From: Candidatus Bathyarchaeota archaeon
GTDB taxonomy: Archaea > Thermoproteota > Bathyarchaeia > Bathyarchaeales > Bathycorpusculaceae
NCBI GenBank assembly: GCA_963775465.1
Contig: CAVZIW010000005.1
Span: forward strand, 1-47,162
DNA: 47,162 bases
Direction of reading: 5' to 3'
Of this stretch, positions 8,547-33,825 are shown piece after piece. The position numbers were made by a program, and so were the translations under genes. The stretch's first letter is position 1, and each line of letters opens with the position of its first letter. Below the pieces are notes generated by a model, which was given only the letters and a program-made list of their open reading frames with translations, did no database searches and was not told the origin of the DNA.

Positions 8547-8557
8547 GAGGAGAAAAA

Positions 8558-9415: not shown

Positions 9416-9432
9416 CCTTTGGAGGCGATTTT

Positions 9433-9903
9433 TTGACCCAAGTAACCTTAGAATACATGATCATGATTCCTCTTCTAATATTGCAAATTTTTCTTTTCCC
9501 GCTAGTCGCCAACGCCGTTATGGATAGCTGGAACGATTCACGTCGAGATTTGCAGTTGCAAGAAACCGCAGCACATTTAGCTAGTACTATTCAGCAGCTC
9601 TATTATACTATTAATCATGCCTCGATGAACGGTTCTGTGACTATCCACCTTGATATTCCCTTAGCGATAGAGCAATACCCCTACAAGATATCGCTGAGTC
9701 ATGCACCGATGGTAACCGGTGGTTATGAGGTTATGAATGTTACACTGAATTTTATCTCTGTTGAAAGTGGTACTTCTACCATTGTTACCTTGGGCAACAA
9801 TGTAGATTGGCAAAACCTTAATTTCAATAGTACCCAAGCCAACCTAATATTAACTGCGGCCAAAACAGCAGACCAAATCATGCTAACGGCTGGAGGGGAT
9901 TGA
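9433..9903 (+). CDS. Minor pilin-like protein
   Basis: N-terminal QVTLEY plus hydrophobic helix; GGAGG before the TTG start; within the pilus operon. Confidence 0.7.
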   Translation: MTQVTLEYMIMIPLLILQIFLFPLVANAVMDSWNDSRRDLQLQETAAHLASTIQQLYYTINHASMNGSVTIHLDIPLAIEQYPYKISLSHAPMVTGGYEVMNVTLNFISVESGTSTIVTLGNNVDWQNLNFNSTQANLILTAAKTADQIMLTAGGD

Positions 9904-12427: not shown

Positions 12428-15400
12428 ATGAATAACAAAGGTCAGTTCTCTATCATAGCTGCGCTGCTAGTAGCGGTTGTTTTGGTTGCTGCTGTTGCCA
12501 CAACCTACTCAGGTATGCGTTATGGTTCACCCGAAAAGCAACCCCAAATCCTCAGTGCCATAGATGAAACAAACCTTGGGCTAAAAGAAATCTTGGGATT
12601 CACAGTAGGGTACTACGGTTCTGTACTAAAGGTTACAGGTAACATGACCTATGCCCAACAGCTATCTACTAACTATCTAAAAAGTGGCTTAAACAATATG
12701 GGCGATGTCCATCCTGAATGGGGTGCAATCTTCAATTTGACTAATCTTGATTTGGCTGCAAGCTGGTTCACTAATAACAGCTACAGCCAAGGTAAATTAA
12801 ACGTAAACTACAACTTAACCGGGCTAGGCATCTATGGGATAAGCTATGCGACTTCAACCCGGCTAAATGTTCAAATACAGAAATCATCTGAATCGAGCCA
12901 GGCTCAGCTCATTATTTTGCGGGATGAAGGTGAGCCAATGATCAACCTCGGCAAGAGTGACCTCAAATTCTACAGCTATAATTATCAAATCTCGACGTGG
13001 AACCTAACTGCTCCCTCAAAAATTGCCTCTTATGCAAATGGCACCTACATATTAGATCTCCCACAAAATATGACAAGCAGTGCATATGTTATTCAAGTTG
13101 AGGATACGCGAGGACTTATGGTTTTAGCTTCCTCTTACACCCAATTTGTCACTACGATGCTTTGGAACAGCACGGCTTATCGCGAAGGCGTAGACTACAT
13201 TGATGAAGCAAACCAAGAAGTTGTCGGAACCCACAGCAACTTTCCCGCTCAACAGGATGCTCCTAACGAAGAATATGACACCCTGACTGAAGGGGTCTTG
13301 GGAACATTCGATACAAATAATTATCCGACTAATTGGAGCCCTATCGGTTCAACTAATATCGTTGGTGGTGACCTAACGGATTTACAAAGCGACAATGCCG
13401 AATATATGCAATTAGAAAGTTATCCTACGGCCTTCTCATCATCATACAACACAATTGGTGTCGATAGCCAAAACAGTGTTGTTTTGACAAATCAAGCTAA
13501 TTCTATGTCTTGGTCTCATACGACGGGTATAGCAGGTAGTGATAAAATTTTGTTGGTATCAATTGATATTTTTCGAAGTAATAACAATCCAACTACTATA
13601 ACAAGTATAACATATGACGGAATGACTTTCACTCAGCTAGCTTCTGACCTATATAATAGTAACCCGCGAGTTCGTAGTTATGTTTTCTACATCCTTAATC
13701 CATCACCAGGGACAAAAACGATTGACGTGCATTTCGCTAGTTCGACCTATGCAATAGGCGGTTCCCTTACTTACACAAATGTTAACCAGACCCTGCCTTT
13801 TCTAGCAATTAATACATCGACGGGCTCAAGCTCAGCGGCATCTGTTGGTGTTTCAGCTTCAGGTAGCAACACCAAAGTTCTTTTTGGGCATTTAGGCTGT
13901 TATAGAACGAATAATTACTTCGTAACAGATGCTCAGACGACACATTGGTCTGAGAATAGTCAACAGTACAAAGGATTCGGAAGCGACAAAACCGTGACAA
14001 ATGGGTCAGTTTCTACATCATGGACAGCTTCTTCAACTGCAAGTTGGGTTGCAATAGGTGCTCTTCTCCAACCTACTCAAATTGGTACCTCTTTCTCTTG
14101 CAGTGCAGAATTCACGGGAGTTTCAAATATTGATGTTTGGAACAACTTAACTTGGACTATTGCTGCTTCAACCAACGTCAACGGAATAGGTGTGACCTAT
14201 CAACTTTACAATTATAATATTGGAAATTATGTAATAGTAGATGATGGTTTTCTAAACGATACGTTAGGAATATCTGATTCCTCCAAAAGTCAAACAATAT
14301 CAACCGCTTACATGAATTTTCGAGATTTAGCAGGGAACTGGAGAATAAAAGTTAATGCTACCGCAGCAACAACAGCACCGTTTTACTTAAAATTTGACTT
14401 AGTTAGATATAGCATCAATGAAAACAACTATGGTTTAAATCTTGAAGAACAATGGCTAAACATTAATTCAACAATTCTCCGCCAAGCTCTTTGCATTAAA
14501 ACTGGGAGTCTGGGATCTGAACAGTTACTTGTACAGGTTTTCCATGGGGGGTCATGGTCAACTGTGATGAGACTTGTGCCAAACTATTTCAACAATGTGT
14601 CTTTGGCTGGCTATATTGATACTTCGACGTTGACTATACGCCTTTTTGGAGGTAACGAAACAAACGACATAATCCCTGATAGTTACCAAATAGACTGTAT
14701 CTACCTTAAAGATGAACCCGACATTTCATATCTTGCAAGCCATCAACAGTCCAGTTTCACACTAGAAATGTTGCAAAACGGGACCATGCGCTGGCTGGGA
14801 CAGAACATGGATGCAACAACACAAACCATACCCATTCCACCTATACCCGTCAAAGCTATTCATGTAAACCAAACTATTGGCGATGTCAACCAAGAAGTAC
14901 CTTTCCAAATTGAAGACTGGGCATCTTCCTACCAAATTCCCTTGGGCTTAACCAGCAATACCACAGTTTTTAGTAATCGTCAAATACTTGTTTTTATTCT
15001 TGATCGACAAGTTACGGATTTCACGGTTTGGTGGGATGGGCGCGATAACGCAACCCAAACTTCAATGGGTTATACTAATCGGTACTTCACTGCCGATAAC
15101 CCATCAGCATCAACACTTAGCAACGGAAACGTTACTTTGCAATTCAATAATGGTGCAATTAAATCCACCGTCTCAGGCACAACCACCTATAGCACTGCAA
15201 CTTTTATGCGGATTAATGGTGAAGCAAGTACCTATGGCGCAGGGTTTTCTTATGTAATTCATCACGGGATTGTTCGCGATATCGTTCAAGAAGAAGCTGA
15301 ATTCAATACGGGTGCTCCCAACTGTCCCAACGTTTACGCTAACATCATCGTGACTTTGCCTGCAAACACAAACTACTACACTTATCAGCTTCGGCTTATG

Positions 15401-15904
15401 TTCACTGCAACTTCTCAGCAGCGATCACTAACAGATTTGAACCCAATCAAGTTGGTGCCTAATCCAACTGCAGTGCAGACACAGACAGAAAATGGAACTT
15501 TAATTGGTTTTCCTATAGTCGAAAATGGCACAGGTACCTTCTCTAACTTGGCAGTTAGCGGCTGGACAGAACATCACTTCAGCCAGTTCATTTCAGGAAC
15601 TGGCAAAGGTTCAGGCATCATGTTCAGAAGTATTCAGAACCAGAAGCTCTATTCTTTTGACTCCATTGCACCTCAGCACACAGGGGCTTTAAAGGCAACA
15701 GTAGGTTCACCACTAATTGAGTTTTTGCCTGTGACTTTGACTCAGGCCACTTTTAACTATGCCTATGACGTAACATGGGTAGGCGCAGTTGCTACTTTCG
15801 ATGGTTCAACGCCTATTTGTAGTCTGTATGAGAACACAACTCCAATGGGGCTATGGATTTTAGCGGAGTATCCACCCACTTTGAGTTTGATTCCTAAAAA
15901 CTAA
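12428..15904 (+). CDS. Large (1158 aa) pilin-like adhesin with class III signal peptide
   Basis: MNNKG/QFSIIAALLVAVVLV; Ser/Thr/Asn-rich, beta-rich body with many N-x-S/T sequons. Confidence 0.8.
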   Translation: MNNKGQFSIIAALLVAVVLVAAVATTYSGMRYGSPEKQPQILSAIDETNLGLKEILGFTVGYYGSVLKVTGNMTYAQQLSTNYLKSGLNNMGDVHPEWGAIFNLTNLDLAASWFTNNSYSQGKLNVNYNLTGLGIYGISYATSTRLNVQIQKSSESSQAQLIILRDEGEPMINLGKSDLKFYSYNYQISTWNLTAPSKIASYANGTYILDLPQNMTSSAYVIQVEDTRGLMVLASSYTQFVTTMLWNSTAYREGVDYIDEANQEVVGTHSNFPAQQDAPNEEYDTLTEGVLGTFDTNNYPTNWSPIGSTNIVGGDLTDLQSDNAEYMQLESYPTAFSSSYNTIGVDSQNSVVLTNQANSMSWSHTTGIAGSDKILLVSIDIFRSNNNPTTITSITYDGMTFTQLASDLYNSNPRVRSYVFYILNPSPGTKTIDVHFASSTYAIGGSLTYTNVNQTLPFLAINTSTGSSSAASVGVSASGSNTKVLFGHLGCYRTNNYFVTDAQTTHWSENSQQYKGFGSDKTVTNGSVSTSWTASSTASWVAIGALLQPTQIGTSFSCSAEFTGVSNIDVWNNLTWTIAASTNVNGIGVTYQLYNYNIGNYVIVDDGFLNDTLGISDSSKSQTISTAYMNFRDLAGNWRIKVNATAATTAPFYLKFDLVRYSINENNYGLNLEEQWLNINSTILRQALCIKTGSLGSEQLLVQVFHGGSWSTVMRLVPNYFNNVSLAGYIDTSTLTIRLFGGNETNDIIPDSYQIDCIYLKDEPDISYLASHQQSSFTLEMLQNGTMRWLGQNMDATTQTIPIPPIPVKAIHVNQTIGDVNQEVPFQIEDWASSYQIPLGLTSNTTVFSNRQILVFILDRQVTDFTVWWDGRDNATQTSMGYTNRYFTADNPSASTLSNGNVTLQFNNGAIKSTVSGTTTYSTATFMRINGEASTYGAGFSYVIHHGIVRDIVQEEAEFNTGAPNCPNVYANIIVTLPANTNYYTYQLRLMFTATSQQRSLTDLNPIKLVPNPTAVQTQTENGTLIGFPIVENGTGTFSNLAVSGWTEHHFSQFISGTGKGSGIMFRSIQNQKLYSFDSIAPQHTGALKATVGSPLIEFLPVTLTQATFNYAYDVTWVGAVATFDGSTPICSLYENTTPMGLWILAEYPPTLSLIPKN

Positions 15905-16005
15905 CATTGTTATGTATTGATATTACCGACAAAATCTTATATTGCAAGTTCATACGCTAATCCCATACAGGAGGCACACGTAACATCCAGACTCTACAGG
16001 CTGTT

Positions 16006-16803
16006 TTGATGGCATCAAGTATAGTGGTTTCTTTAGCTGTGTTTGTTTATGCATCTTGGCGGGATTATGTTTGTCGGGAAGTAAGCAATAAAGTCTGGGC
16101 CGTTTATGCACCTATCGCGTTAGCCTTAACTCTCTCCCAATTGGTTCTGTTCGATTCAAGTCTGTTGCTTCTCTACGGTTTAAGCTTTGGTGTGACCAGT
16201 GCTATTGCATTGGTGCTATTTTATACAGGTGGTTTTGGCGGAGCAGATTCCAAGGCTTTTATGTGCATCGCCCTCGCCCTGCCTTTTGCACCCATTGCTC
16301 TTTTCACACCCCTAATTGCAGAAGCTATTTCTCCTCAATCTCAGTTGCTTTTCCCTATAACAATTTTTGGAAATTCTGTGTTATTTGCAGCGGCAACTGG
16401 CATCTATATGATATTGCGTAATATTATGTGGCACAGAAAAACTAAAACCACCATGTTTGCAGGGTCTTTGAAGTCAGAGTCATGGGGAAAAAAACTCCTT
16501 ATCCTTATTACAGGTTACAAAATGAACATCGGCAAGCTCAAAGAGAAATGGCATATATTCCCCATGGAGGATATCGATGATAGTAATGCGGAAAAAAGTC
16601 GGCGCTTGATTGTGGTTCCAAATGAAGAAGGTCGAGATAAAATAGTGGAGCGCCTCTCAGACGCCGTAGCATCAGGGAAAATCGACTCTTATGTTTGGGC
16701 CACGCCAGGGTTGCCTATGTTGATTTTTGTTACATTGGGGCTTATTGTTGCTTTGGTCTTTGGTGACATGGTGTGGCTACTTGTACGCTTTATTATCGGT
16801 TAA
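16006..16803 (+). CDS. Prepilin/preflagellin peptidase (A24, FlaK/PibD-like)
   Basis: Catalytic Asp motifs SWRD...REV.N and GGAD; C-terminal VWATPGLPM. Confidence 0.92.
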   Translation: MMASSIVVSLAVFVYASWRDYVCREVSNKVWAVYAPIALALTLSQLVLFDSSLLLLYGLSFGVTSAIALVLFYTGGFGGADSKAFMCIALALPFAPIALFTPLIAEAISPQSQLLFPITIFGNSVLFAAATGIYMILRNIMWHRKTKTTMFAGSLKSESWGKKLLILITGYKMNIGKLKEKWHIFPMEDIDDSNAEKSRRLIVVPNEEGRDKIVERLSDAVASGKIDSYVWATPGLPMLIFVTLGLIVALVFGDMVWLLVRFIIG

Positions 16804-17096: not shown

Positions 17097-17131
17097 GGAA
17101 AGAATACTTTTCTAGCGGAAAGAATACTTTT
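17097..17131 (+). repeat. 15-bp perfect direct repeat GGAAAGAATACTTTT x2 abutting the integrase stop
   Basis: 17097-17111 and 17117-17131, 5-bp spacer. Confidence 0.85.
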
Positions 17132-17132
17132 A

Positions 17133-18368
17133 TCAAGTTTTCAGTCGTCGATAAAGATGTACACCAGCGATTTCATCGTATTTGCTGTAGCCTATCTTAG
17201 CTAATGCCTCGGCTTCTTCCACTGTTGTAGCTCGTGCCGTCTCCCAATCCAAGTCGTTGAAAACCACCGTGTTAGTGTATCGATCCGTACTTACACTGGA
17301 TTTGTGTCCGAGTTTCTGCTGAACCTCTTTTTGCGGTTTTAACTGCTTAATTAGCCTATGAGCGAAGCCGTATCTGAAGGTGTGAATATGAATTAGTCTT
17401 AGTCGGTCTGCTTCTCCGGGGTTATGTCGGCAAACTTTTTTTCGTAACTTTTGGAATTGGACGGTGTGAGCGTTGGGGTTAGGGTTGAATATATACGGGT
17501 CGTACTTGCGATCTATTGATTGTATTCGGGCTATAGTTGCTTCTTGAACTTTTATTGTTCTTGCTTTGCTGCCCTTCTCAGGCATATTGATGCTGATTGT
17601 ACAGTTTGCCGTGTTAACGTCGCATCGTTTGATGTGTGCAACTTCTCCTCGTCTTGCGCCTGTGTCATGCACTGCTTGAAGGTATGCGCCAAATCTTGGA
17701 CCTGCGCTGTTAACGTAGAGTTTTAGCTCGTCAGGGGTAGCTATGAAGGCCTCTTTAGTTTCGTAGTTTACTTTGATTGGTTCCCAGAAAATCTTTAGAG
17801 CTTTGCAATAACTTAAGTATGCTTTTACTGTGTTGAATTTCTTGGAGGGTTTCTCTTTATCGTTATATTCTGGTTCAGTCGCCAGGACCGTTTCGACACT
17901 ATTGGGATTGTTGAGGTCTGCGCCTTTTGCTATGAGTTTGCTTAGCCATGAACAGTTAGTTCCTATTGTGCCGTCGCCGACGCCTTTCTTTTTCTTTCGC
18001 CAAGCGTATTCTATTAGGTTTGCTTCCTTTACACCCGCAACAGTCTTTGTTTCTGTTGCAGTCGCCAAATTTTTCGAGTTCTCCTCGCATATTCGACGCT
18101 TAGAAAGTAAGGCGCTTTGATTATTTAATTGCCACTTTAAACTTTCTTTTAATGGTTTAGGTCGGCTGGGGTCAGAGAAGCGGTGTCCATATTTCTTGCA
18201 AAACCAAAGTTGAACCACACGTCCATCAGCAAGACGGCGCACTCCATACCGGACTGTTTTAGCTAAGTGACATCGCGGGCATAGGGGGTTGGTGCTGGCG
18301 GAGTCCTCAAAATCCGACTTCCCTACAGTTTCACCAGCTTCGTCGAATATGCGGTTAACGGAAGCCAA
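17133..18368 (-). CDS. Tyrosine recombinase/integrase with N-terminal Zn-ribbon
   Basis: TGARRGEV (R), KGS (K), HTFR (H-x-x-R), LGH and TDRY (Y). TTG at 18368 follows GGGAGGGAGAGG. Confidence 0.92.
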   Translation of the reverse strand: MASVNRIFDEAGETVGKSDFEDSASTNPLCPRCHLAKTVRYGVRRLADGRVVQLWFCKKYGHRFSDPSRPKPLKESLKWQLNNQSALLSKRRICEENSKNLATATETKTVAGVKEANLIEYAWRKKKKGVGDGTIGTNCSWLSKLIAKGADLNNPNSVETVLATEPEYNDKEKPSKKFNTVKAYLSYCKALKIFWEPIKVNYETKEAFIATPDELKLYVNSAGPRFGAYLQAVHDTGARRGEVAHIKRCDVNTANCTISINMPEKGSKARTIKVQEATIARIQSIDRKYDPYIFNPNPNAHTVQFQKLRKKVCRHNPGEADRLRLIHIHTFRYGFAHRLIKQLKPQKEVQQKLGHKSSVSTDRYTNTVVFNDLDWETARATTVEEAEALAKIGYSKYDEIAGVHLYRRLKT

Positions 18369-18382
18369 CCTCTCCCTCCCCT

Positions 18383-18598
18383 TTATCTCAACCTGTCTTT
18401 CACTTTTGTATCCTCTTCTTTGATTGGTGCCTCGTAAACGGCGAGATAAACTCCCAACTCGGCTACAAACACCAAAGCCCTCACCACCGGATTCACAGCC
18501 GTATGCTCCCGCCGACAAGCCTCTGCACGTGCAACAGCTAAGACAGAACCAAAATCAACCGTACGCTCATTAGGAGAAATCACGATTGCCTTGAACAT
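18383..18598 (-). CDS. Small hypothetical protein between the Rep-like gene and the integrase
   Basis: Fills the gap between co-oriented genes, overlaps the upstream gene end and stops just before the integrase RBS. Confidence 0.55.
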   Translation of the reverse strand: MFKAIVISPNERTVDFGSVLAVARAEACRREHTAVNPVVRALVFVAELGVYLAVYEAPIKEEDTKVKDRLR

Positions 18599-19527
18599 TG
18601 AGGACACCTTCCACAACAGAAATTTAATTTACTAGCGATAACTTCTTGCAGCGTTTTTTTCGGGGTTTCAGTAACTTCCCATCTAATTTTGCGAGAACGA
18701 TCTTGCTCATGAACATAAATCCTTGCAAGCTCCCCACACCACATCTTAAAAGTGATGTTAAATGCCTCTCCACTGAACTCTTGAGCGGAATCCTTTCCAT
18801 AATGCCACATAACAACCTTCCAAACCTCAACAGCAGGAATACTCTTCTCAGTTAACTTTTCATCAACTATCCTGCATGTATTGAGAAGTTGGTTACGAAC
18901 ACCGCCGATAAATGCAGCCATGCTTACAAAACCTACGGCACTTGCCTCTACAGGGCAATTTCCACAATTTAAAACAAAAGTAACCGTCCCGTTGCAGTGT
19001 AGTGTAACTTGAACTGATTGATATTTAGACCATCCAAAAGAGCCGAAGGAAATATCTTTAGACGACACTTGTGGCGTGTATTTACCAGTACTTAAGAGAA
19101 GCTCGTAAAGCTGGTCAGCGACAAAAGCTAATCTAACATCATGAACTCTACAGAGTTCTTCCGCAGGTAAAGACTCTAGCAACGCTAAAAGATCAATCTT
19201 GACACTCCTAAGTCCGTTACCCCCCATACGGGATACTGTCATTACTTTTTTAATTTTAGACCTATCAACAGATTTCAGGTTATAAAATGCGTATCTTGAC
19301 CTACAATATAATCCGATTATTCCATGTCTATTTAGTTTACAGATGATGTTTCTTGCTGTTCCTTTTGACCGTATCCCAGCTGAATCCATTAAATCTCCCG
19401 AACAAAAAGGTCGTGTTGGATCAATCATTATCCACCTCAATGCTTTCATTTCGACCGGGGACAGCAAGCCCGTCCAATGCTCCAACCCACCCCAATGCTC
19501 CAAAGTGTCATTGTCACTGGTTACCAA
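18580..19527 (-). CDS. wHTH-containing protein, candidate replication initiator of the element
   Basis: N-terminal wHTH pattern (KGTARNIICKLNRHGII), HDVRL motif, C-terminal RIY...IRWE; AAGGTGA before TTG. Function inferred. Confidence 0.55.
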   Translation of the reverse strand: MVTSDNDTLEHWGGLEHWTGLLSPVEMKALRWIMIDPTRPFCSGDLMDSAGIRSKGTARNIICKLNRHGIIGLYCRSRYAFYNLKSVDRSKIKKVMTVSRMGGNGLRSVKIDLLALLESLPAEELCRVHDVRLAFVADQLYELLLSTGKYTPQVSSKDISFGSFGWSKYQSVQVTLHCNGTVTFVLNCGNCPVEASAVGFVSMAAFIGGVRNQLLNTCRIVDEKLTEKSIPAVEVWKVVMWHYGKDSAQEFSGEAFNITFKMWCGELARIYVHEQDRSRKIRWEVTETPKKTLQEVIASKLNFCCGRCPQCSRQS

Positions 19528-19772
19528 GCGATGTCACCTTTTTGATGGGTTCAAGAATTATGCGTTCCTTATCATCCAGCTTAACTATGAAGAGATCAGT
19601 ATTTTCTTCACCCAGCTTAAGTCTTAGCTTTTTTGGAATAACAATGATTTTCGAGTTATCAGTTAGGTATGCCTTACATGTTGTAATTATTGTCTCCATT
19701 AAGTGCATCCTCGCAATTATTGACAAAATAGATATGTTAGTTGGATACCATGGGGTATTTTGGTGGCTTCGT

Positions 19773-20903
19773 ATGGAAAGTACAGACAAGTTAGATGTTG
19801 GTGACTATGCTTGTTTTACATGGAAAAAAACAGACGGTTCAGCGATAGGGGCAAGTGAGGGTCTTTTTCTTGGATGTTTTGGCGATGAAATTTCAGGAGA
19901 ATTCTTGGTATTTGACAGGAGTTGTTATAAGGATTCCTTTAAAACTGGCGTTTTTTCACTGGGAATCCATGACCTAAAAATTGTCCCTGCTAACGAAATA
20001 AACAGCGTTAATAGGCGCTGGTTAAGAGACCGCCCGCCTAACCAATCCGAGAAGTTTAGTTTCTTAGTTGATGCTTTCTATTATTCTAACATTGATTATA
20101 AAGCCACATATGACTTCATCCAAAACATAAATCATTCATTAAAATTAAAGATCATCGGCAATTCAAAGGCTGAATATGGGATAAATATCAAAGCGATTCC
20201 TTCCGCTTCAGAAGCATCTATTAACATAACTTGCAAAGGTAAAATCCAAATCACTTGTCAACAGGCAAATATGGATAAATGCATCAATTGGCTGGAAAAT
20301 ATTGTAAAATTACCTGAAAACCAAAAGAGGTTTGTTCTGTTCCCCAAACAAATTGCTTATCGAGTTTTTGATTCCTTTAAAGAAAAGTCCGTTCCCCCTG
20401 AAACTCTTATTGAACAAATCGGCTCAATCGAAGGTTCAGCAATTATAGTGCCCCTTGGCTGGGAACAAAAGTTCCTAAAAGAATCAGACCGCAATGCCTT
20501 GTCTGATATTTTGAATAATGATTATCCGAATACTGCACAAAATAGCAGTTATTTAAGACATCAAGAGCAAGGAAGCAAAAGTGGATTGACCGTTGAGAAA
20601 TACATTGGAAATAGAACGCCTTGTATGAGATTGATAGGTCAAATCTTGAAACAAGAGGATGAAGATGGACTCCTAAGAATGTGGGAGGAGTCACGTTCGG
20701 ATGTTAGTCAAGTTTTTGATACTGGAACTTCAAATGGAGAACAAATTAAGGCACATGTATTGATACATGATCTGGTAATTGACAAAAAAACAGGTCGCTA
20801 TAAAGTATTAATTCGATCATATTATGATAATCAATTTAATAATATATCACCTAAAAAGAACATAACCTCCAAACTTAAAACCAATCACTCAAACACAGTA
20901 TAG
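19773..20903 (+). CDS. Hypothetical protein (376 aa)
   Basis: Long open frame; ATG 19773 avoids overlap with the divergent gene. Confidence 0.65.
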   Translation: MESTDKLDVGDYACFTWKKTDGSAIGASEGLFLGCFGDEISGEFLVFDRSCYKDSFKTGVFSLGIHDLKIVPANEINSVNRRWLRDRPPNQSEKFSFLVDAFYYSNIDYKATYDFIQNINHSLKLKIIGNSKAEYGINIKAIPSASEASINITCKGKIQITCQQANMDKCINWLENIVKLPENQKRFVLFPKQIAYRVFDSFKEKSVPPETLIEQIGSIEGSAIIVPLGWEQKFLKESDRNALSDILNNDYPNTAQNSSYLRHQEQGSKSGLTVEKYIGNRTPCMRLIGQILKQEDEDGLLRMWEESRSDVSQVFDTGTSNGEQIKAHVLIHDLVIDKKTGRYKVLIRSYYDNQFNNISPKKNITSKLKTNHSNTV

Positions 20904-20995
20904 GTGATTAATCGTAGAATAAGATTCAGTCTGAGTGTAGTCTCTAAAGGCTTATTTGCTAAACGTATGTAGTTATTCTTTGATCAGAGAGTGTA

Positions 20996-21210
20996 GTGTT
21001 GGCTAAGCAATTAGGATTAAATGGAAAACCTGTTAACGGTAATGGTGCTAATGTTGGTTTTGAGGATAAACTCTGGAAAGCCTCTGACAAAATGCCCAAC
21101 AACATGGACGCAGCCGAGTACAAGCATGTAGTTTTGGGTTTGATTTTCTAAAATATATCTCTGATGCATTCAAAGAAGTTTATGAAGAAGTAAAAAGTGA
21201 CCCCCGAGAA
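20996..21210 (+). pseudogene. hsdM: 5' remnant of type I restriction-modification methyltransferase
   Basis: Manual translation [35 protein letters not shown]-(frameshift)-KYISDAFKEVYEE matches the HsdM N-terminal motif; the rest of the gene is absent. Confidence 0.85.
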
Positions 21211-21316
21211 ACTATCTGACCTTATCGGTTAATTGCTCTGTACTCAGATACACTCTAAAGAAAAGATTTTATAATGTGTTATCGATAAGGTCGAATAGAG
21301 ATTAGGAAGGTAAGAT

Positions 21317-21812
21317 ATGACCGACGACAACGATAAAATCGCAAAATTTGTTGTTGACGGAGAACAAATCATTCTTATTGATTCTGCAGAAACTGATGAT
21401 TATGTTAGCGGTAAATTAGTGCTTACATCAAAACGGTTATTCCTTTGTGGTGCAAAAAGTACTTTTAATCGTGATTATGTTATCAAAAAAGAGTTAGAAT
21501 TGAAAGAAATCGCAAATGTTCAAGGCGACTTTGGAAAGACTAGTATTTTGGGTGTGGCTGGTACTTCAGAGTTAATTATCGAGCCTAAGATTGGAGAGAA
21601 TCTTGTGTTATCGTTAGATGTGGGTTCGATGGCAATTTGGGATTATAATAATGCAGCAGCCATGCAAATGACTAAAGTTACTAATTGGATTAATTCAATT
21701 AAGTTAGAGTTGCTCAAAGTTAGAAGTGGATTTTAAGTTGTGTGTCAAATGTGGAAAAAAGCTACCTAAAGGTAATTTTGGGTTTTGTCCCTTCTGCGGA
21801 AATTCACTTTAG
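21317..21812 (+). CDS. PH/GRAM-like domain protein with a C-terminal Zn-ribbon in a shifted frame
   Basis: GKLVLTSKRLF motif; overlapping frame encodes CVKCGKKLPKGNFGFCPFCGNSL* ending at 21812. Confidence 0.65.
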
Positions 21813-22178
21813 CCATAAACCCCCTTGAAAAAAACTTGCTTTTTGTTGGTGTTCTACTTTAGACAAAAACGTCGAACAACTGGACTTATGTGCTTAAAAG
21901 CATGAAAAATGTTTTGAACAAAAAGACAGGGCGTATATCAGTCCCGCATTATGAAGGATTAAAATTTAATCTTTTTCCCCCTCTTCTTCATTAACAACTA
22001 CTACTTCTTCTTCTACTTCTTCTATCCTCTCGCTCACCTTACTCACTCTACTTACTCACTCGCAAAAACAAAGGCAAAACAAACAGACAGACAGCCACAG
22101 ACAACAAACAGACAAATTCGTTACAACAAAATCTTAAAAGGCAAATGCACATAGAGAATCACATTTGGCGTATCAGTA

Positions 22179-24095
22179 TTGGATGACATTACAATCGACA
22201 CGGAACCCTACCAAGAACAAACCGAATTGAAACATAAGGTAATTGGAGATTATTTTGATAAATGGGTGAAAATACTTGGCGTTGGATTTGGGGGAAAAAT
22301 AAACTACGTTGATGGTTTTGCAGGTTTGGGCGCTTACAAGAAGGAAGACGAAATATTTTATGGTTCACCCATTATTGCATCGGAAGTAATTGAAAAAAAT
22401 CTCAAATTCATAAAAAGCGTACAAATGATTCTAATCGACAAAGATGAAAAAGTACTTTCAAATTTAAAAAATGTATTTGTGTCCAAAAACTTACTAAACC
22501 GCCCTTATCTTAATGTTCAGTTTATTCACGAAGATTTTAACAAAGCAATGGTAGAATATTTAGAAAATGGAAAACTCAACTACGCGCCAACCTTTGCTTT
22601 CATTGACCCCTTTGGGTTTGAGGCTGTTCATTTTGATACAATTAAAAGAATAATGCAAAATAACAATCGCTCAGAATTTGTCATTAACTTCATGTTTAAT
22701 GCAGTCAGCAGGTTTCTCAGAAGAGAAGACCTCACAGAAACATTCAACCGTTTTTTTGGAACGAACGACTGGAAGGAAACCACATCTAATGTTGAGAATA
22801 GAGAGGAAATCCTAGTCAACTACTACGTATCACGACTAAAAGAAATTTCCAAAATAGTCGTTCCTTACAGATTGAGATTCCCTGACAAAAATAGAACCTA
22901 TTACTACCTTATTCATCTTACAAACCATCCGCTTGGAGCCACAATAATGAAAAGTAGCTTTGCAAAATATTGTCAAGGTCGAAACGTCTGGCTAGGACAT
23001 GACTCAGTGCAAAGCAGTTTGGAAGAGATTCTAGGGATACGAAGTTCCGAAGTCAAAGATTTGCTCTTGAAAAAATACAAAGGTAAATGCATCTCTTACG
23101 AACAAATAATTATTGACAACATAGGTGATACATGTTATCTAGATACTCATTTCAAGAATGCAATCTTGGAACTCGAGAAAGAAAATAAGGTGTTTATTGA
23201 TAGGTACCCCAAAATCGGAGAAAGCGGAAGACCGCTGAAAAGTATCCAATTTAATACAAAATTGTATTTTGAGAGTTTCCCAAGTATAGAAAGAAAAACA
23301 TTGCTTTACGAAACTAAGGTGGAATATGGGAATTTTACGATAAATCACGTGTTTGGTTGCTCTCATGGTTGTAAGTATCCTTGCTACGCTTTTTTATTGG
23401 CGAGAAGGTATGGTAGAGTTCAAGAATATGAACAATGGTTACATCCAAAGATAGTATCTAATGCTCTCGAGTTATTGGATAAAGAGATTCCACAATATAA
23501 GAAGAAAATAGACTTTGTTCATCTATCTTTCACAACAGACCCATTCATGTTTGACTCGCTTAACCTAAGAGTTTTTCCAGCCATAAGTGAGCTTACTCTA
23601 AAAATAATTCAGAAACTAAACAAGGAAGGCATAAAAGTCACAGTATTAACAAAGGGAGTATTTCCAAAAGACCTTTTAGATATAAACCAATTCAACCCAG
23701 CTAATGAATACGGAATAACACTGGTATCGCTCGACAAAAAATTTTGGAAGGAGTATGAACCATATTCCGCACCGCCTGAAGAAAGAATAAAGTCATTGGA
23801 ATTATTGCATAAAAGCGGACTTAAAACTTGGGTAAGTATTGAACCTTATCCGACTCCTAACATAATTAAGCAGAACCTAACCTCAATCCTCGAAAAGATA
23901 AATTTTGCGGATAAAATAATCTTTGGCAAGATGAATTACAATAAAAGAGTATCTGATTTTGACAAAGGAGAAGAATTCTTTGCTAATTGCTCAAACACGG
24001 TTATTGAGTTCTGCAGGAAAAACATCAAGCAATATCACATAAAGAAAGGCACCCCTAACAACTCATCCGAAACTGCAGAAATATTTGGCAAATAA
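22179..24095 (+). CDS. tcmP: Fusion of TcmP-family (three-Cys-motif partner) domain and SPL-like radical SAM domain
   Basis: N-half TELKH, YVDGFAGLG, GSP, FIDPFG, EFVINFM. C-half INHVFGCSHGCKYPCYA, SFTTDP, LTKG, EP..ERI, TWVSIEP. Confidence 0.85.
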   Translation: MDDITIDTEPYQEQTELKHKVIGDYFDKWVKILGVGFGGKINYVDGFAGLGAYKKEDEIFYGSPIIASEVIEKNLKFIKSVQMILIDKDEKVLSNLKNVFVSKNLLNRPYLNVQFIHEDFNKAMVEYLENGKLNYAPTFAFIDPFGFEAVHFDTIKRIMQNNNRSEFVINFMFNAVSRFLRREDLTETFNRFFGTNDWKETTSNVENREEILVNYYVSRLKEISKIVVPYRLRFPDKNRTYYYLIHLTNHPLGATIMKSSFAKYCQGRNVWLGHDSVQSSLEEILGIRSSEVKDLLLKKYKGKCISYEQIIIDNIGDTCYLDTHFKNAILELEKENKVFIDRYPKIGESGRPLKSIQFNTKLYFESFPSIERKTLLYETKVEYGNFTINHVFGCSHGCKYPCYAFLLARRYGRVQEYEQWLHPKIVSNALELLDKEIPQYKKKIDFVHLSFTTDPFMFDSLNLRVFPAISELTLKIIQKLNKEGIKVTVLTKGVFPKDLLDINQFNPANEYGITLVSLDKKFWKEYEPYSAPPEERIKSLELLHKSGLKTWVSIEPYPTPNIIKQNLTSILEKINFADKIIFGKMNYNKRVSDFDKGEEFFANCSNTVIEFCRKNIKQYHIKKGTPNNSSETAEIFGK

Positions 24096-24097
24096 GA

Positions 24098-24460
24098 TTA
24101 AGCACTCACTAACCTCGGAATCCATCGTTCTTTTTCATGTCGTAGGAACTTTGCAAATAATAATGCTTCTTCGCCAATCAACGTATCAATTGTTTGTCTT
24201 TTGCCAACTTTGATTCTCTCTACATCGACAAAGCGGTCAAAGAAAGCGGTTAAATCCTCAGCTAAACTATCGGTTTCATACTCTTTGAGATGTATTTTCT
24301 TGCCCATCTTAAGATGTATCATAAAGTCAGTTACCAGCACGAAATCTTTTTTGCGTAGTTTTTGGCATCGTTCAATCAAGAAATCATCAATCAAATATCT
24401 GTATAGCTCTTGGAAATCGCATACTAAACTGGGTTTTGCCATGTTGAACAGAGTGAAGGA
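24098..24460 (-). pseudogene. cas1: 3' remnant of a solo Cas1 (casposase-like) gene
   Basis: LHSVQHGK-(one extra A)-PSLVCDFQELYRYLIDDFL matches the Cas1 G-F-L-H...SL..D..E..R..ID region; the N-terminal part is missing. Confidence 0.82.
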
Positions 24461-24740
24461 GTTCAAAATTGTGTGTTGATGTTTTAATTTGAATGGTTAA
24501 AGCTTTGCAGTACTACCAATACTGAATTGAACGATATTTTGCTAACAGAGCTTGAGGGAAAAGACAGCGCACTACAGGACTTTACGAGCGTCTTTGGAAT
24601 AGTGATAAAGCTGACAGAAAATTCAATTAGTTCCCTATTTATCCCAATTTGGGAGATATCCACGATAAAACACTATATAACAACGTTATATTTATTATGG
24701 GGTGCCCATAAGTATTACCTAAACACAATTGGTGATTTTT

Positions 24741-27518: not shown

Positions 27519-30068
27519 TTGCAAAACAACAAAAATAAAACTATGGCTATTTTAATTATAGTATTGCTAACAACTTCAATGACAGCTACAATTACCTTTC
27601 TGCCAACTGTAGATGCACACACACCAGAATGGAAAATTTCTACTTATGCTTATGTCAATGTCGCACCAGACCGTGTAGGTCTTGGTCAGAGAGTATTTCT
27701 TACGATGTGGGCTTACTTCCTTTTGCCCGGCGCAGCCATACCAAACGACATTCGAATGACCCAATACAAACTGAACATAACCAAACCCGATGGAACAACA
27801 GAAATACTTGGTCCATTTACAGGCGATACCACAAACACCATCTACACAACATACTCGCCAGACCAACTTGGAACATACTCAGTACAACTATTTTACCCTG
27901 ATTTGGTCTACAACTGGGGTGGCAGCTATCAAGACGATACATTCCTAGGCGCAACAAGCAAAACTACCTACTTTACCGTACAGCAAGATCCACTGCCAGA
28001 CATAGCTGAATATCCACTTCCAACAGAATACTGGTCTCGCCCCATAGAAGGGCAAAACTCTGACTGGGCAACAATTGCCTCAAATTGGCTTGGCACAGGA
28101 TCACCTCAAATCGGAACAACTAACTTCCAAAAAGACGGTACAGCCCCAAATAGCCCACACATAATGTGGACCAAACCAATACAAAACGGAGGCGTCGTCG
28201 GAGGAAGCAACGTTGGAATCGAAGGCAACACATTCTATCAAGGAGGATCATACAACCACCGATTCGCCAACCCAATAATAATGTATGGAAGACTCTTCTA
28301 CACTGAACCCCTCGGACTCTCAGGAACCGCAGGAGATACAGTCTGCGTTGATCTACGCACAGGAAACGAACTCTGGCGAATACCAGATATGCCCAATCTA
28401 TCATTTGGATACTATTACGATGCAGACACACCCAACCAACACGGTGTCTTCTACGAAGGCATACTATTCACAAATAACTTTGGTCAAGCATTTGACCCAC
28501 GCACAGGAAATCAACTCTTTACCGTAACCAATGTTCCGTCAGGTACATCATCTATTGGCGAACACGGAGAAGTCCTACGATACGTCATTACCAACGCAGG
28601 CAACAATTCCAATCCAGATTGGCGTTTGAAACAATGGAACTCATCTAAATTATGGAACTTGGCTTCAAACACCCCAACAATACAATCAACAGTGGATGCA
28701 AGCACACCCGACCGATTTGATTGGGATGTCCCAATATCATGGCGCAATGGCATGTCTTCAGTTAGCGTACAAGCAGGTTACACAAATGATTTACTACTAG
28801 GTAGCAACGGCACGCTACCCGCATGGAGTAATACAAATACAGAATATACAATGTGGGCAGTAAGTCTTAAGCCAGAATCAGCAGGGCACCTTCTATGGAT
28901 GAAAACCTATCAAGCACCCCCAGGAAACATTAGCATCATAATTAGACCAGAAACAGTTGATCCACAATCACGAATATTCACCATATACGAAAAAGAAACA
29001 ATGAACTGGTACGGTTACAACCTAGACACCGGAGACAACCTATGGGGACCAGTCGAAAACCTAAGACCATTTGACACTTTCAGCGGCTCAGTAACAACAG
29101 AAAACACAGGATCACATCACGTAGCCTACGGCAACCTATACGTTAGCGGCTATGGAGGACTACTCTACTGCATCAACGCAACAACCGGCGAACGCCAATG
29201 GACCTACGGCGGAGACAATCCAGACGGCAACAATACATTCAGCGGCTTAGCATCTCCATGGGGATACTGGCCAATTTTCATCGGAGCCATTGCAGACGGC
29301 AAAATTTACATGTTCACCAACGAGCACTCTCCAAACACACCCCAATACAAAGGCGCATTAATTCGCTGCCTTAATGCAACAACAGGCGAAGAACTCTGGA
29401 CACTAACAGGATGGGGCGAAGGCGGTTCATTTATGAGCAACAACGGAGCCATCGCAGATCAACAATACACATACCTAAACACTTACGACATGCAAATATA
29501 TTCAGTCGGCAAAGGACCCAGTGCAGTTACAGTTTCTGCTCCACAAATAGGCGTTCCAACTGGATCATCAATCACCATACAAGGCACAGTAACCGACATC
29601 TCATCTGGAACAACACAAACTGAACAAGCAGCAAGATTCCCAAACGGCGTCCCAGCGGTCTCTGACGCAAGCATGAAGGGCTGGATGGAATACGTCTACA
29701 TGCAAAAACCACGTCCAATGGACACGACAGGGGTTCAAATCGTTCTTAGCGTTGTTGATGCTAACGGAAACTATCGCGACATAGGAACAACAACAAGCAA
29801 CGACGGATTCTTTAGCTTCAACTGGGTGCCTGACATTGAAGGTCAATACACTCTATATGCTTCCTTTGAGGGCTCTGAATCCTACTGGCCATCACACGCT
29901 ATTACAGCCTTCAGCGTTGATCCACAAGCACCAACAGCAACACCATCTGAAGCACCTCCACAATCTGCAGCTGATATGTACTTTGTTCCCGCAATCGCTG
30001 GACTGTTCATTTTGATCGTAGCAGTGCTGATCTTGGTAGTATTGCTAACTTTCAAAAAACGACCATAG
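27519..30068 (+). CDS. PQQ-like beta-propeller repeat surface protein with C-terminal TM anchor
   Basis: Signal peptide, repeated D/N..TG..LW blade motifs, PLPTEYWSRP, C-terminal Ig-like domain, TM plus KKRP. Confidence 0.88.
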   Translation: MQNNKNKTMAILIIVLLTTSMTATITFLPTVDAHTPEWKISTYAYVNVAPDRVGLGQRVFLTMWAYFLLPGAAIPNDIRMTQYKLNITKPDGTTEILGPFTGDTTNTIYTTYSPDQLGTYSVQLFYPDLVYNWGGSYQDDTFLGATSKTTYFTVQQDPLPDIAEYPLPTEYWSRPIEGQNSDWATIASNWLGTGSPQIGTTNFQKDGTAPNSPHIMWTKPIQNGGVVGGSNVGIEGNTFYQGGSYNHRFANPIIMYGRLFYTEPLGLSGTAGDTVCVDLRTGNELWRIPDMPNLSFGYYYDADTPNQHGVFYEGILFTNNFGQAFDPRTGNQLFTVTNVPSGTSSIGEHGEVLRYVITNAGNNSNPDWRLKQWNSSKLWNLASNTPTIQSTVDASTPDRFDWDVPISWRNGMSSVSVQAGYTNDLLLGSNGTLPAWSNTNTEYTMWAVSLKPESAGHLLWMKTYQAPPGNISIIIRPETVDPQSRIFTIYEKETMNWYGYNLDTGDNLWGPVENLRPFDTFSGSVTTENTGSHHVAYGNLYVSGYGGLLYCINATTGERQWTYGGDNPDGNNTFSGLASPWGYWPIFIGAIADGKIYMFTNEHSPNTPQYKGALIRCLNATTGEELWTLTGWGEGGSFMSNNGAIADQQYTYLNTYDMQIYSVGKGPSAVTVSAPQIGVPTGSSITIQGTVTDISSGTTQTEQAARFPNGVPAVSDASMKGWMEYVYMQKPRPMDTTGVQIVLSVVDANGNYRDIGTTTSNDGFFSFNWVPDIEGQYTLYASFEGSESYWPSHAITAFSVDPQAPTATPSEAPPQSAADMYFVPAIAGLFILIVAVLILVVLLTFKKRP

Positions 30069-31266: not shown

Positions 31267-33825
31267 ATGAAAAAAGCGATAAACAAAAAAATAACACTTT
31301 TTGCTATTTTACTACTATTATCTTCAGTATTTACAATGATTACTATTACACCAGTAGAAGCACAACTTGCACCTGAACAACCGGTCAGTGGACCATTACC
31401 GTCAGGCGTAACAGTTGATGTTATGGCTGATTCTGCAGCTTTTTTAAGCATTAGACCAAACCCAGTTGGCATAGGCCAGCAATTCTTAATCAACATGTGG
31501 ATTAATCCTCCACCGCACGCTTATCGACAATATCTTGATTTGGAACTCACTGTAACTAAGCCAGATGGAACCAAAGATGTGTACGTTGTGGATTCTTATG
31601 TTGCTGATGGGACGGCTTGGATGGAACTGATAGCAGATCAACTTGGCGACTGGAAATTCCAGTTAGAGTTTCCAGGCATCTACTTCCCTGCAGGACGGTA
31701 TTTGGACGGGCATTCTATAATAGAAAACACTGGCGGATCAGTCTACAGCGCAGTCTACGTTAAACCAAGCATTTCACCCGTTACAACACTGACCGTGCAA
31801 CAAGACATGGTATATGGATACCCCGAATACCCTCTCCCAACCGATTACTGGTCACGACCAGTCAATCAAGAACTAAGAGACTGGTGGCCTATTCTAGGCA
31901 ACTATCCATGGTTCGGAGTCGGCGGCGGAGAAAAATGGGATGAACTCTATCCCAACACGAATCCATATGCTAACCAAGGACAAAACTTCATACCCTGGGT
32001 TCAGGGACCTGACAGTGCCCATATTGTATGGAAGCGAGAAGGTGCCCTCGGAGGAATTGTTGGCGGCGATAACACTGACAACAGTGTTTATTGGCCAATC
32101 ACAGGGTGGAAAAATGCACCAACTGTAATACTTTGGGGACGAGGTTACCATACAGTAACCAAGCCAAGCATAGATGGTCCAAGCGAAACAACTTGGTGGC
32201 AATGCTACGACATACGGACGGGTGAACTATTCTGGGAAAGACCATTATATCCTGGTGAATCAGAGCCAAACTTAATTGAATACGGCGCAACGGCTGTTCC
32301 ACCAGTACCAGGTGTAAGCATAAAGCCAGACACACCATATCTACTTTCAATAAGTAATGGTTACCTATGCAAATACGACGCATTCAGTGGAGCAATGTTC
32401 GCCAACATCTCGATTTCTCCCTTGACAGGTAACGGGGGAACTTACTACATGAACGGATACGTCTTAGGTATCCAAAATCTTGGGACGGGAGCAGGAGCAG
32501 ATCAATATCGATTAATAAACTGGACCACACTAGGAAGCAGTAGCTCCTTTATTTCAAGAGTGGTTAGTAACACAACATACAGTAGTAGCAGGTTATTAGG
32601 CTCTGCAAACATTGACTGGAACGTAATGTTAGGTGCAACTGCAACCAATTACATGTCAGGTGGCATTAGTACACACACAATTGTACAAGGATTCGACATA
32701 TTAACTGGACAATCACTGTGGAATAAAACTATTCAAGAGCCTCTCTTTAGCGGAAGTGCATGTGTTGCAGATCATGGAAAATTCGTAATAATTACAACAA
32801 GAGGATACGCCTACGCGTTTGACTTAAGAACGGGTGAGATTGCATGGAAAACCGAGCAATTTGACTATCCATATGACGCTACAGGTTGGGGAAGCTACTC
32901 TACTATAAGTGGTTATGGTAACTTCTACTGGCTTGCACAAACTGGAGTCTACTCTATAGATTGGGCGACTGGAAAAATCAACTGGAAATTTGAGAAACCA
33001 ATGGAGTACCAATACGAAGGAGCATTCACAGGAGTAGACGGAGAAACAGTGTATCCAAACCACGCCCCCGGAATACTAGCCGATGGCACACTATTCATAC
33101 CCTCAAGCCTACACTCTCCTGAATCGCCATACTACAGAGGACTTAAAACATTTGCAATCGACGCTATCACAGGTGAAGAGAAATGGAGTTTAGGCATCTC
33201 AGTTGCAGGGCAACACACCCGAAGCAGTTTGCAGCTACGAGTCGCTGATGGATACTTAACAATTGGAGCCAGAGACGGATACATGTATGTTGTGGGCAAA
33301 GGACAAAGTTCAACGATGGTTTCAGCGCCTCAAACAGAGGTTCAAGTGGGACAGAAATTCACAATCACAGGAACCGTCTTTGATATGTCACCAGCTCAAC
33401 CTGGAACCGGTGCCATAGCCGATGAATACATGGATTCCTGGATGCAATACATACATCTACAGCTTCCAAAGCCGACCGATGCAAAAGGAGTTACAGTAAA
33501 CCTAACCGCGATTGACCCTAACGGCAACCTAATAACCATAGGCCAAGCCACATGCGACACTAATGGTGTATTCGGTTTCACTTGGTCTCCTGAGGTTCCA
33601 GGTCTCTATACGGTCGTTGCTTCATTTGCTGGGACAAATTCCTACGGCAGTTCAATGGCAAGCACATACTTCAGTGCAGTTGACGCACCAGTAAATACTC
33701 CACAGCCAACCACAGCAATCCAAACAACATCAGACATGTACTTCATTCCAGCAGTCGTTGGCATAATCGTCGCCATAGCCATAGTCGGCGCGACAATAAT
33801 TCTTGTGCTTCGTAAGCGACCATAA
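31267..33825 (+). CDS. Second PQQ-like beta-propeller repeat surface protein
   Basis: Same architecture as 27519-30068 (PLPTDYWSRP, DIRTGELFW, DLRTGEIAW, TM plus RKRP). Confidence 0.88.
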   Translation: MKKAINKKITLFAILLLLSSVFTMITITPVEAQLAPEQPVSGPLPSGVTVDVMADSAAFLSIRPNPVGIGQQFLINMWINPPPHAYRQYLDLELTVTKPDGTKDVYVVDSYVADGTAWMELIADQLGDWKFQLEFPGIYFPAGRYLDGHSIIENTGGSVYSAVYVKPSISPVTTLTVQQDMVYGYPEYPLPTDYWSRPVNQELRDWWPILGNYPWFGVGGGEKWDELYPNTNPYANQGQNFIPWVQGPDSAHIVWKREGALGGIVGGDNTDNSVYWPITGWKNAPTVILWGRGYHTVTKPSIDGPSETTWWQCYDIRTGELFWERPLYPGESEPNLIEYGATAVPPVPGVSIKPDTPYLLSISNGYLCKYDAFSGAMFANISISPLTGNGGTYYMNGYVLGIQNLGTGAGADQYRLINWTTLGSSSSFISRVVSNTTYSSSRLLGSANIDWNVMLGATATNYMSGGISTHTIVQGFDILTGQSLWNKTIQEPLFSGSACVADHGKFVIITTRGYAYAFDLRTGEIAWKTEQFDYPYDATGWGSYSTISGYGNFYWLAQTGVYSIDWATGKINWKFEKPMEYQYEGAFTGVDGETVYPNHAPGILADGTLFIPSSLHSPESPYYRGLKTFAIDAITGEEKWSLGISVAGQHTRSSLQLRVADGYLTIGARDGYMYVVGKGQSSTMVSAPQTEVQVGQKFTITGTVFDMSPAQPGTGAIADEYMDSWMQYIHLQLPKPTDAKGVTVNLTAIDPNGNLITIGQATCDTNGVFGFTWSPEVPGLYTVVASFAGTNSYGSSMASTYFSAVDAPVNTPQPTTAIQTTSDMYFIPAVVGIIVAIAIVGATIILVLRKRP

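Follow-up and report, generated by a model that had tools for sequence, protein, structure and literature searches.

Pairs of neighbouring genes encoding a TcmP-family protein and a three-Cys protein are already catalogued, as NCBIfam TIGR04474 with partners of the DUF5131 (PF07505) or spore photoproduct lyase-like type, and as PDC-M30 and PDC-M41 in PADLOC. The TcmP family takes its name, in the NCBIfam description, from this partnership with a three-Cys-motif protein. In the present study, we analyzed a 47,162-nucleotide stretch of DNA (the window; contig CAVZIW010000005.1) from a Candidatus Bathyarchaeota archaeon, in which one gene encodes a TcmP domain and a radical S-adenosylmethionine (SAM) domain as a single polypeptide of 638 amino acids (aa), the three-Cys partner being present within the same chain as TcmP. 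The partnership and the mobile context are shared with the catalogued pairs, whereas the union in a single chain and the identity of the Cys enzyme, which is not DUF5131, distinguish the window protein. The single-chain form is a variant of an uncharacterised cassette, and we hold with middling confidence that it is a genuine single-chain version of a mobile tcmP and radical SAM cassette, acting as an enzyme with two activities that modifies nucleic acid, probably DNA. A literature search for the function of the cassette found no study and only mentions of TcmP in gene tables, namely as a differentially expressed gene adjoining the Hna defence gene of Sinorhizobium and in a prophage gene list; DUF5131 appeared as a table row of RadicalSAM.org.

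Spore photoproduct lyase, a radical SAM enzyme acting on a flipped-out site in duplex DNA, has the motif CMGHCHYC and is named, for DNA repair, alongside gp53 of phage M6 as the only radical SAM enzymes known to the authors to act on DNA, in the accessible portion of PMC8989533. This lyase was the best structural match of aa 328-623 of the window protein, in which the last cluster Cys is likewise flanked by Tyr on both sides. In contrast, the sequence identity is 13-14% only, the motif is Cx3Cx3C instead of Cx3Cx2C, and the window family has an obligatory methyltransferase-fold partner, is mobile and shows no link to sporulation. The M6 protein gp53 is described in the same portion of PMC8989533 as a radical SAM isomerase of thymidine hypermodification, having the spore photoproduct lyase fold and altering DNA base modification post replication. 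In fold and in being carried by a mobile genome it resembles the window protein, but it has the canonical motif CTVGCAFC and works with kinase, amino-acid transferase and pyridoxal phosphate (PLP) enzyme partners on 5-hydroxymethyldeoxyuridine (5-hmdU), in place of a TcmP partner. For the N-terminal part, RlmJ, the 23S rRNA m6A2030 methyltransferase (4blv, 7p9o), and the DUF519 protein LPL1258 (2oo3) share the whole-domain fold, and the conserved first-helix Lys (motif X) and D-P-aromatic motif IV-like element of the window protein have putative counterparts in RlmJ. The window protein differs from RlmJ in having DPFG rather than DPPY and a classical DxFAGxG motif I, with a marginal sequence relation, and TcmP, unlike RlmJ, is fused or paired with a radical SAM protein and is not a core ribosome-biogenesis gene. 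Rv2578c and PA0069 (COG1533) have the core GCxHxC..CYA in common with the window family, which is set apart from them by the Pro before the third Cys and by its tie to TcmP.

Frame and domains of the fusion protein

The gene and the domains of its product were assigned as follows.

22179..24095, + strand: TcmP-winged helix-radical SAM fusion gene (638 aa, TTG start, stop codon included), from the open reading frame (ORF), the domains and full-length homologues
22215..22970, + strand (aa 13-264): TcmP domain with a predicted RlmJ-like class I methyltransferase fold, from TIGR04474 and the VIA-align match to RlmJ 7p9o
22311..22331, + strand: SAM-binding motif I D45-G-F-A-G49-L-G51 (DxFAGxG), from conservation in homologues
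22605..22616, + strand: motif IV-like D143-P-F-G146 (cf. DPPY of RlmJ), a presumed rather than aligned equivalent of the RlmJ motif
23031..23213, + strand (aa 285-345): winged-helix domain, from a weak Pfam GMT-wHTH match and the structural model
23214..23333, + strand (aa 346-385): conserved beta-rich linker into the radical SAM barrel, within the stretch that aligns with spore photoproduct lyase
23334..24092, + strand (aa 386-638): predicted spore photoproduct lyase-like radical SAM domain, from PF04055 and the VIA-align match to 4fhc
23358..23384, + strand: cluster motif C394-S-H-G-C398-K-Y-P-C402 (Cx3Cx3C), with a run contig over its codons without difference

Upstream of the TTG start, eight more codons only are open (the whole open frame being 646 aa), and the alignments of homologues begin at residue 1-2 of the 638-aa protein. 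A CAGACA-rich low-complexity stretch was seen at 22080-22125, approximately 55-100 bp 5' of the gene start. A preliminary description of this DNA had claimed one uninterrupted 638-aa frame with both domains, and this was confirmed for 22179..24095 on the + strand with both family matches above their cut-offs: NCBIfam TIGR04474 (TcmP) covered aa 13-264 with 190.6 bits against a cut-off of 53 (E 4.9e-56; 193.3 bits in the genome search), and Pfam Radical_SAM PF04055 covered aa 388-554 with 39.4 bits against a gathering threshold of 29.5. The cluster motif, given there as C-SHG-C-KYP-C, was indeed read as CSHGCKYPC at aa 394-402.

The search of a 5.8-billion-protein collection yielded 260 relatives, and the best 120 clusters were examined; as the search was limited to 350-1117 residues, stand-alone radical SAM proteins (approximately 255-290 aa) could not appear. 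TcmP and radical SAM domains were found in one chain in 105 of the 120 best clusters (56 with the winged helix and 49 without it), the non-fused remainder being 14 clusters with winged helix and radical SAM only and one with radical SAM only. The fusion in the window is hence not rare enough to stand alone; the at least 105 fused clusters among the best 120 are named simply 'TcmP' by NCBI, and the sources named for the fused chains include Thermoplasmatales, Helarchaeota, Elusimicrobiota, Deferribacter abyssi, Poribacteria and Defluviitoga.

An indel error, which had been named beforehand as an outcome that would speak against the fusion, is very unlikely to be its origin, because both domains stand in a single chain in 105/120 clusters, the linker at aa 346-385 is kept (53% mean pairwise identity among fused homologues), a protein identical to the 638-aa fusion is recorded on three contigs, and the run contigs are gapless. 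The run contigs derived from two public runs covering the gene in part: one spanned the Cys-motif codons at 23243-23418 with 0 differences and no gap, from a run that may be the source sample, and the other covered 22758-23108 with five substitutions and no gap. That an assembly or indel artefact united two separate genes is hardly credible to us. The majority of relatives are two genes, and the nearest relative of the window protein is split over two overlapping frames, both in favour of such an artefact; on the other side stand the fused clusters with their same domain order and conserved linker, the identical protein on three contigs and the gapless run contigs, and the split nearest relative also has Trp for the first cluster Cys, so that it looks like a decaying copy judging from its sequence. 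This relative, at L002:7366-9277 of a Thermoproteota metagenome-assembled genome, has the radical SAM domain closest to that of the window (64% identity).

Distribution of the fused and split forms

The cassette was detected in at least 584 stretches of species-representative genomes (one genome per species), confirmed out of at least 600 pattern matches, and in 72 viral contigs. The best 80 of the genome loci were classified by hidden Markov models (HMMs) built from the fused-form alignment.

10/80 genome loci: fused, one of which (L042) is a 355-aa remnant only
51/80 genome loci: tcmP directly upstream on the same strand
2/80 genome loci: partner on the opposite strand
8/80 genome loci: TcmP not recognisable despite room
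8/80 genome loci: at a contig edge
1/80 genome loci: radical SAM frame not intact

The split pair is commoner than the fusion, in agreement with the earlier claim that the two partners are usually separate. Split adjacent pairs accounted for 53/80 genome loci and 63/72 viral loci, against 10/80 and 0/72 for the fused form, and tcmP lay directly upstream on the same strand in 62 of the 72 viral loci. Of the coupled two-step enzyme raised in the preliminary description, the belonging together of the two parts is supported by this strict adjacency and the recurring fusions, and both parts preserve catalytic-type residues. The fused form supplies direct 'Rosetta stone' evidence for two proteins working as one machine, and it makes a single chain available for expression, spectroscopic and nucleoside mass-spectrometric work.

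The relationship between the two forms was examined in a phylogeny covering 145 radical SAM domains (IQ-TREE, quick run, LG+G4), from which the fused loci L001, L004 and L025 had been dropped by the length filter. All eight fused rows (8/8) fell in one supported clade of 16 rows, beside five split rows and three of undetermined form, and at least two, most simply three, changes between fused and split were needed on the tree, a number as low as this being reached in 0 of 500 label shuffles. The two parts of the protein have diverged to different extents: among fused homologues, the mean pairwise identity was 38.7% for the N domain (minimum 17.6) and 61.4% for the C domain (minimum 49.6). The TcmP part of the short fused form, lacking the winged helix, was 21-24% identical to the window protein, while the radical SAM part was still 52-59% identical between the long and short architectures. 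The winged helix itself was carried by TcmP in some split loci and by the radical SAM protein in others.

The neighbours of the cassette were scanned in 43 genome loci (120 proteins lying no more than two genes away, being the first 120 of 215) and in 29 viral loci (150 proteins of 294, with counts made by reading of the output). A DNA methylase or restriction subunit was encoded within this distance in 7/43 genome loci (L001, L004, L005, L012, L021, L026 and L027), and L001, L004 and L005 are the three other long-form fused loci with flanks. Integrases occurred in two genome loci, and phage terminases, a TnpB-like protein and a TOTE conflict-system primase domain in one each. In the viral loci, DNA methyltransferases were found in 10/29 and integrases or transposases in 9/29, and repressors were frequent; the viral-contig setting is that of lysogeny and of the accessory part of prophage-like elements. 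In one viral locus (L105:4866-5750), the upstream gene encoded a second radical SAM protein instead of TcmP (phrog_9298, E 3.4e-87), an arrangement recalling the 'radical SAM mobile pair' families, to which the window protein gave weak matches.

Among the PADLOC models, PDC-M30A (E 7.3e-27) and PDC-M41A (1.3e-11) matched the N part of the fusion; of the B models, only PDC-M41B matched (2.2e-4, aa 378-454), and no match to a PDC-M30 B model was obtained. These matches bear on the possibility that the protein is an anti-phage effector leaving self DNA unmarked, in which the radical SAM domain would damage or block the invader, or deplete or change a nucleotide, and TcmP would be the sensor or targeting part. 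The location of the gene amid defence-gene remnants, and of its relatives beside restriction-modification, TOTE and toxin-like genes, points in the same direction. However, PADLOC PDC systems are candidates whose function is not known to have been tested, and no test was found in the literature. The strict conservation of methyltransferase-type catalytic residues suits a writer better than a sensor, and on viral contigs, where the pair is also frequent (72 loci), a mark protecting self DNA would be just as plausible. We therefore consider such an effector rather unlikely.

Folds, cluster motif and possible substrate

An AlphaFold2 model of the 638-aa protein, built with an alignment of 48 fused homologues, had a mean pLDDT of 90.2 and a pTM of 0.87. 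In this model, the N-terminal fold is of the RlmJ type and the C-terminal fold of the spore photoproduct lyase type. Residues 4-319 aligned with RlmJ 7p9o in VIA-align with a Z of 17.9 (rmsd 3.2, 217 residues aligned), followed by LPL1258 (2oo3, Z 17.7), Trm1 (3axs, Z 15.1) and generic methyltransferases near 14, and Foldseek returned the same families. A viral fold search (BFVD) gave generic methyltransferase and radical SAM matches only. For the fusion protein, the RlmJ family PF04378 produced no Pfam match at E <= 0.01.

The residues expected of a methyltransferase are kept. D45, G49 and G51 of motif I were invariant across the 48 fused homologues, and in 108 distinct TcmP domains drawn from fused, split, cellular and viral loci, conservation was nearly complete for K18 (106), D45 (106), G51 (107), D143 (108), P144 (108) and R178 (106), with an acidic residue at position 87 (motif II) in 104/108 and Y or F at position 145 in 90/108. 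The DPFG motif is also carried by Trm1. K18 of the fusion protein sits in the first helix of the TcmP domain; in RlmJ, the first-helix K18 and, within the DPPY motif IV, D164 are essential according to the available part of PMC3814359. Judging from the whole-domain superposition, K18 and D143 may be the structural equivalents of RlmJ K18 and D164.

The winged-helix stretch was modelled as helices and strands with pLDDT above 90, and Pfam GMT-wHTH matched aa 290-338 below its cut-off (E 0.0055), the same family being precomputed on several homologues. A link to the Gamma-Mobile-Trio suggested by the family name was rejected, since the trio proteins are recombinases and a StbA-like protein in the accessible part of the source.

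These folds also admit the alternative that the substrate is a structured RNA (tRNA or rRNA), which the RlmJ/Trm1-like domain would recognise and to which the radical SAM domain would add a second modification, either in a housekeeping-like role or as a mobile-element toxin. The top N-domain folds, RlmJ, LPL1258 and Trm1 with the Z values above, are RNA methyltransferases, and tRNA-related genes occur among the neighbours of some relatives (TsaE and TsaD beside L016; tRNA synthetases beside L034, L037 and L046). On the other hand, the gene is strain-specific, island-borne and not found in 20 relatives, the cassette is present on prophage-like contigs and has DNA methylase and restriction neighbours, the radical SAM fold is nearest to a DNA enzyme, and even the RlmJ active site is likened by its authors to m6A DNA methyltransferases, in the available part of PMC3814359. 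An RNA-modifying enzyme is accordingly a possibility of low probability.

For the C-terminal part, model residues 328-623 aligned with spore photoproduct lyase 4fhc with a Z of 19.3 (rmsd 3.8, 249/340 residues aligned; VIA-align), ahead of a viperin-like enzyme (15.3), pyruvate formate-lyase activase (15.0), NifB (14.8) and viperin (14.6), and the model contains a partial TIM barrel of the radical SAM type. Kinship with the Ophion radical SAM defence system was rejected, Ophion being viperin-like and unrelated according to the part of the source that is accessible. The nearest ESM Atlas cluster consisted of 678-aa proteins bearing Pfam SPL on 98% and GMT-wHTH on 36%. Pfam SPL PF20903 itself gave no match at E <= 0.01 for the fusion protein and is carried by relatives (P0117 and ESM Atlas clusters). 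DUF5131 PF07505 reached 16.5 bits against 28.9, at profile positions 1-47 only and over the Cys-motif region. The best NCBIfam radical SAM matches were Rv2578c NF038135 and PA0069 NF033668 (E about 1e-11), which scored 43.6 and 42.8 bits, far under their respective cut-offs of 430 and 360.

This structural match raises the question of DNA repair, in which a lesion such as a cross-link or an alkylation adduct would be reversed by radical chemistry, with TcmP flipping the base and transferring no methyl group. The best match of the C domain to spore photoproduct lyase and the Tyr residues flanking the third Cys agree with such a function, and some stand-alone homologues are named 'DNA repair photolyase' by JGI. 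A repair enzyme would, however, be expected in the core genome, whereas the gene is patchy, mobile and virus-borne too; the fast evolution of the partner is unlike lesion recognition, and the SAM-binding and motif IV residues of that partner are conserved. We regard a repair enzyme as quite improbable.

The canonical Cx3Cx2C pattern was absent from the fusion protein, in which the three Cys are present with the spacing one residue off (Pro401). This is not a peculiarity of the fusion, as it had seemed in the preliminary description, but the signature of the whole subfamily, split forms included. C394, H396, G397, C398, P401, C402, Y403 and A404 were invariant in the alignment of 48 fused forms; C-x-H-G-C-x-[YF]-P-C was found in 118/120 listed proteins, counting P0034 with D for G, and the two exceptions were a fragment and P0051, which has the length and name of the L002 radical SAM frame. 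Among distinct radical SAM domains from genome and viral loci, 137/138 carried the motif, L002 being the exception. In related archaeal genomes, the closest radical SAM proteins, 33-34% identical, read GCEHKCVYCYARF, GCEHKCIYCYARF and GCQHSCVYCYARY, and the canonical relatives of the family have GCxHxCxYCYA. In such a comparison of sequences, the family motif can be read as the canonical motif with a Pro inserted ahead of the third Cys, and the Cx3Cx3C proteins emerge as a separate subfamily captured by no Pfam or NCBIfam subfamily model. A literature search for a radical SAM family with Cx3Cx3C found no described family in the portions of the sources available, the spacing appearing as a loose spelling for NifB in a review and as a thuricin peptide motif. 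If it does bind a cluster, the family-wide Cx3Cx3C would represent a cluster-site variant new to radical SAM enzymes.

Returning to the single-chain enzyme with two activities, a mechanism can be proposed. Nucleic acid, most probably duplex DNA, would be bound by the winged helix together with the TcmP domain, and the two would turn a base outwards and probably transfer a methyl group to an exocyclic amine. A [4Fe-4S] cluster held via C394, C398 and C402 would allow the radical SAM domain to cleave a second SAM molecule, and the resulting 5'-deoxyadenosyl radical would act on the same or a neighbouring nucleotide, so that a complex base modification would be written (or rewritten) by the two domains together. 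In conflicts with restriction or defence systems, this mark may serve the mobile element, either by protecting the DNA of the element or by taking part in a defence. The target would be set by the fast-evolving TcmP part, with the slow-evolving radical SAM part as a constant chemical engine, a division that fits the mean pairwise identities of the two domains given above (38.7% and 61.4%). DNA is preferred as the substrate because spore photoproduct lyase and M6 gp53, the two enzymes of this fold for which a described function was found, act on DNA, because of the winged helix, and because of the DNA methylase and restriction neighbours. The proposal of the preliminary description, a role in DNA modification or defence, finds support in the broader form of a nucleic-acid role in conflict or mobile-element biology, which fits the folds, the integrase island and the methylase-type neighbours in 7/43 and 10/29 loci.

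Several observations weigh against a DNA-modifying enzyme of this kind. No third conserved gene, including a cognate nuclease or reader, was found, the top neighbour family being present in four loci, and the biological role may accordingly be that of a protective mark or of a defence. At a distance of up to two genes, no restriction-modification neighbour was seen in 36 of the 43 genome loci and many neighbours were housekeeping genes, and some of the viral loci are copies of a single element family, so that their methyltransferase counts are not independent. Among solved structures, those closest in fold to the N domain (RlmJ and Trm1) are RNA and not DNA methyltransferases; the link to RlmJ is weak by sequence (hhalign against E. 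coli RlmJ, E 0.015, probability 2.9%) and covers the GSP motif region only, and a sequence-profile search of the PDB revealed no relative of the fusion protein. The motif counts from the loci are partly circular, as the scans were seeded with the motif, and the literature found documents no enzyme with a cluster bound by Cx3Cx3C.

A more far-reaching version of the proposal is that the cassette is a radical-chemistry DNA 'writer', in which the methyltransferase-fold module would select and flip a base at a chosen sequence and the lyase-like Cx3Cx3C module would then turn it into an undescribed modification. We advance this only tentatively. If true, mobile elements of archaea, bacteria and phages would share a widespread system of epigenetic marking or self-marking, and the single-chain form would provide the least complex enzyme for demonstrating the activity.

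The integrase-bearing island and other features of the window

The fusion gene is cargo at the end of an approximately 7-kb integrase-bearing island in an archaeal chromosome. The window DNA is archaeal and encodes a prepilin peptidase of the archaeal type, the ATPase and membrane protein of a type IV pilus and a TrmB regulator, and the features of the island and its border were as follows.

17105..24100, no strand: island of approximately 7 kb with approximate ends, same-genus DNA matches stopping at 17104 and resuming near 24115
17133..18518, - strand: tyrosine integrase at the left end of the island (PF00589, 49.4 bits; phrog_1 integrase, E 8.9e-21)
21062..21148, + strand: HsdM N-terminal domain (HsdM_N) remnant of 29 residues (PF12161, 23.5 bits, under the 24.5 cut-off, E 1.2e-4)
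24098..24466, - strand: ORF for a Cas1 C-terminal fragment (122 aa), convergent with the fusion gene and 2 bp from its stop

The fusion gene is the last gene of the island. When the island interior was compared with five same-genus genomes, the matches were limited to two short parts of the integrase gene and to 21018-21222, over the HsdM_N remnant. The G+C content was 0.35-0.36 at 20-24 kb and 0.43-0.45 at 10-19 kb, being lower in the right part of the island. A search of 20 relatives (12 from the same genus and 8 from the same order) found no fused gene, the matches there being 27-34% identical and confined to the radical SAM part. Attachment sites for the island were not found, with no tRNA gene in the window and the direct repeats short and imperfect.

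The preliminary description had placed the gene between hsdM and cas1 remnants. The Cas1 C-terminal fragment stood up to examination, while hsdM was reduced to the sub-cut-off HsdM_N match of 29 residues, no N6_Mtase domain being found in the window. The Cas1 fragment ORF belongs to a family that is multi-copy in the genus, with at least three copies in one same-genus genome at 76-82% nucleotide identity. One of these copies, an ORF of 147 aa (L169:2933-3376), scored 43.9 bits against 22.3 with Pfam Cas_Cas1, at profile positions 201-282 of 283. A full cas1 was not found in the genome of the window, and the Cas1 C-terminal fragments may be the ends of decayed casposon-like elements.

The other island ORFs, within 18580-21736 (315, 516 and 139 aa), gave no Pfam, NCBIfam, PADLOC or PHROGs match where scanned, and these three do not recur beside the cassette elsewhere. 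To the left of the island, an archaeal type IV pilus locus at 4976-16803 encodes a T2SSE-type ATPase, a T2SSF membrane protein and the archaeal prepilin peptidase, together with four large ORFs without family match, one of them of 1158 aa; the end of this locus is conserved in same-genus genomes as far as the island border. On the right, 27519-30068 and 31267-33825 encode two surface proteins of approximately 850 aa with PQQ-like beta-propeller repeats, and the DNA of 27519-30068 matched many sites in five same-genus genomes, indicating a large paralogous family.

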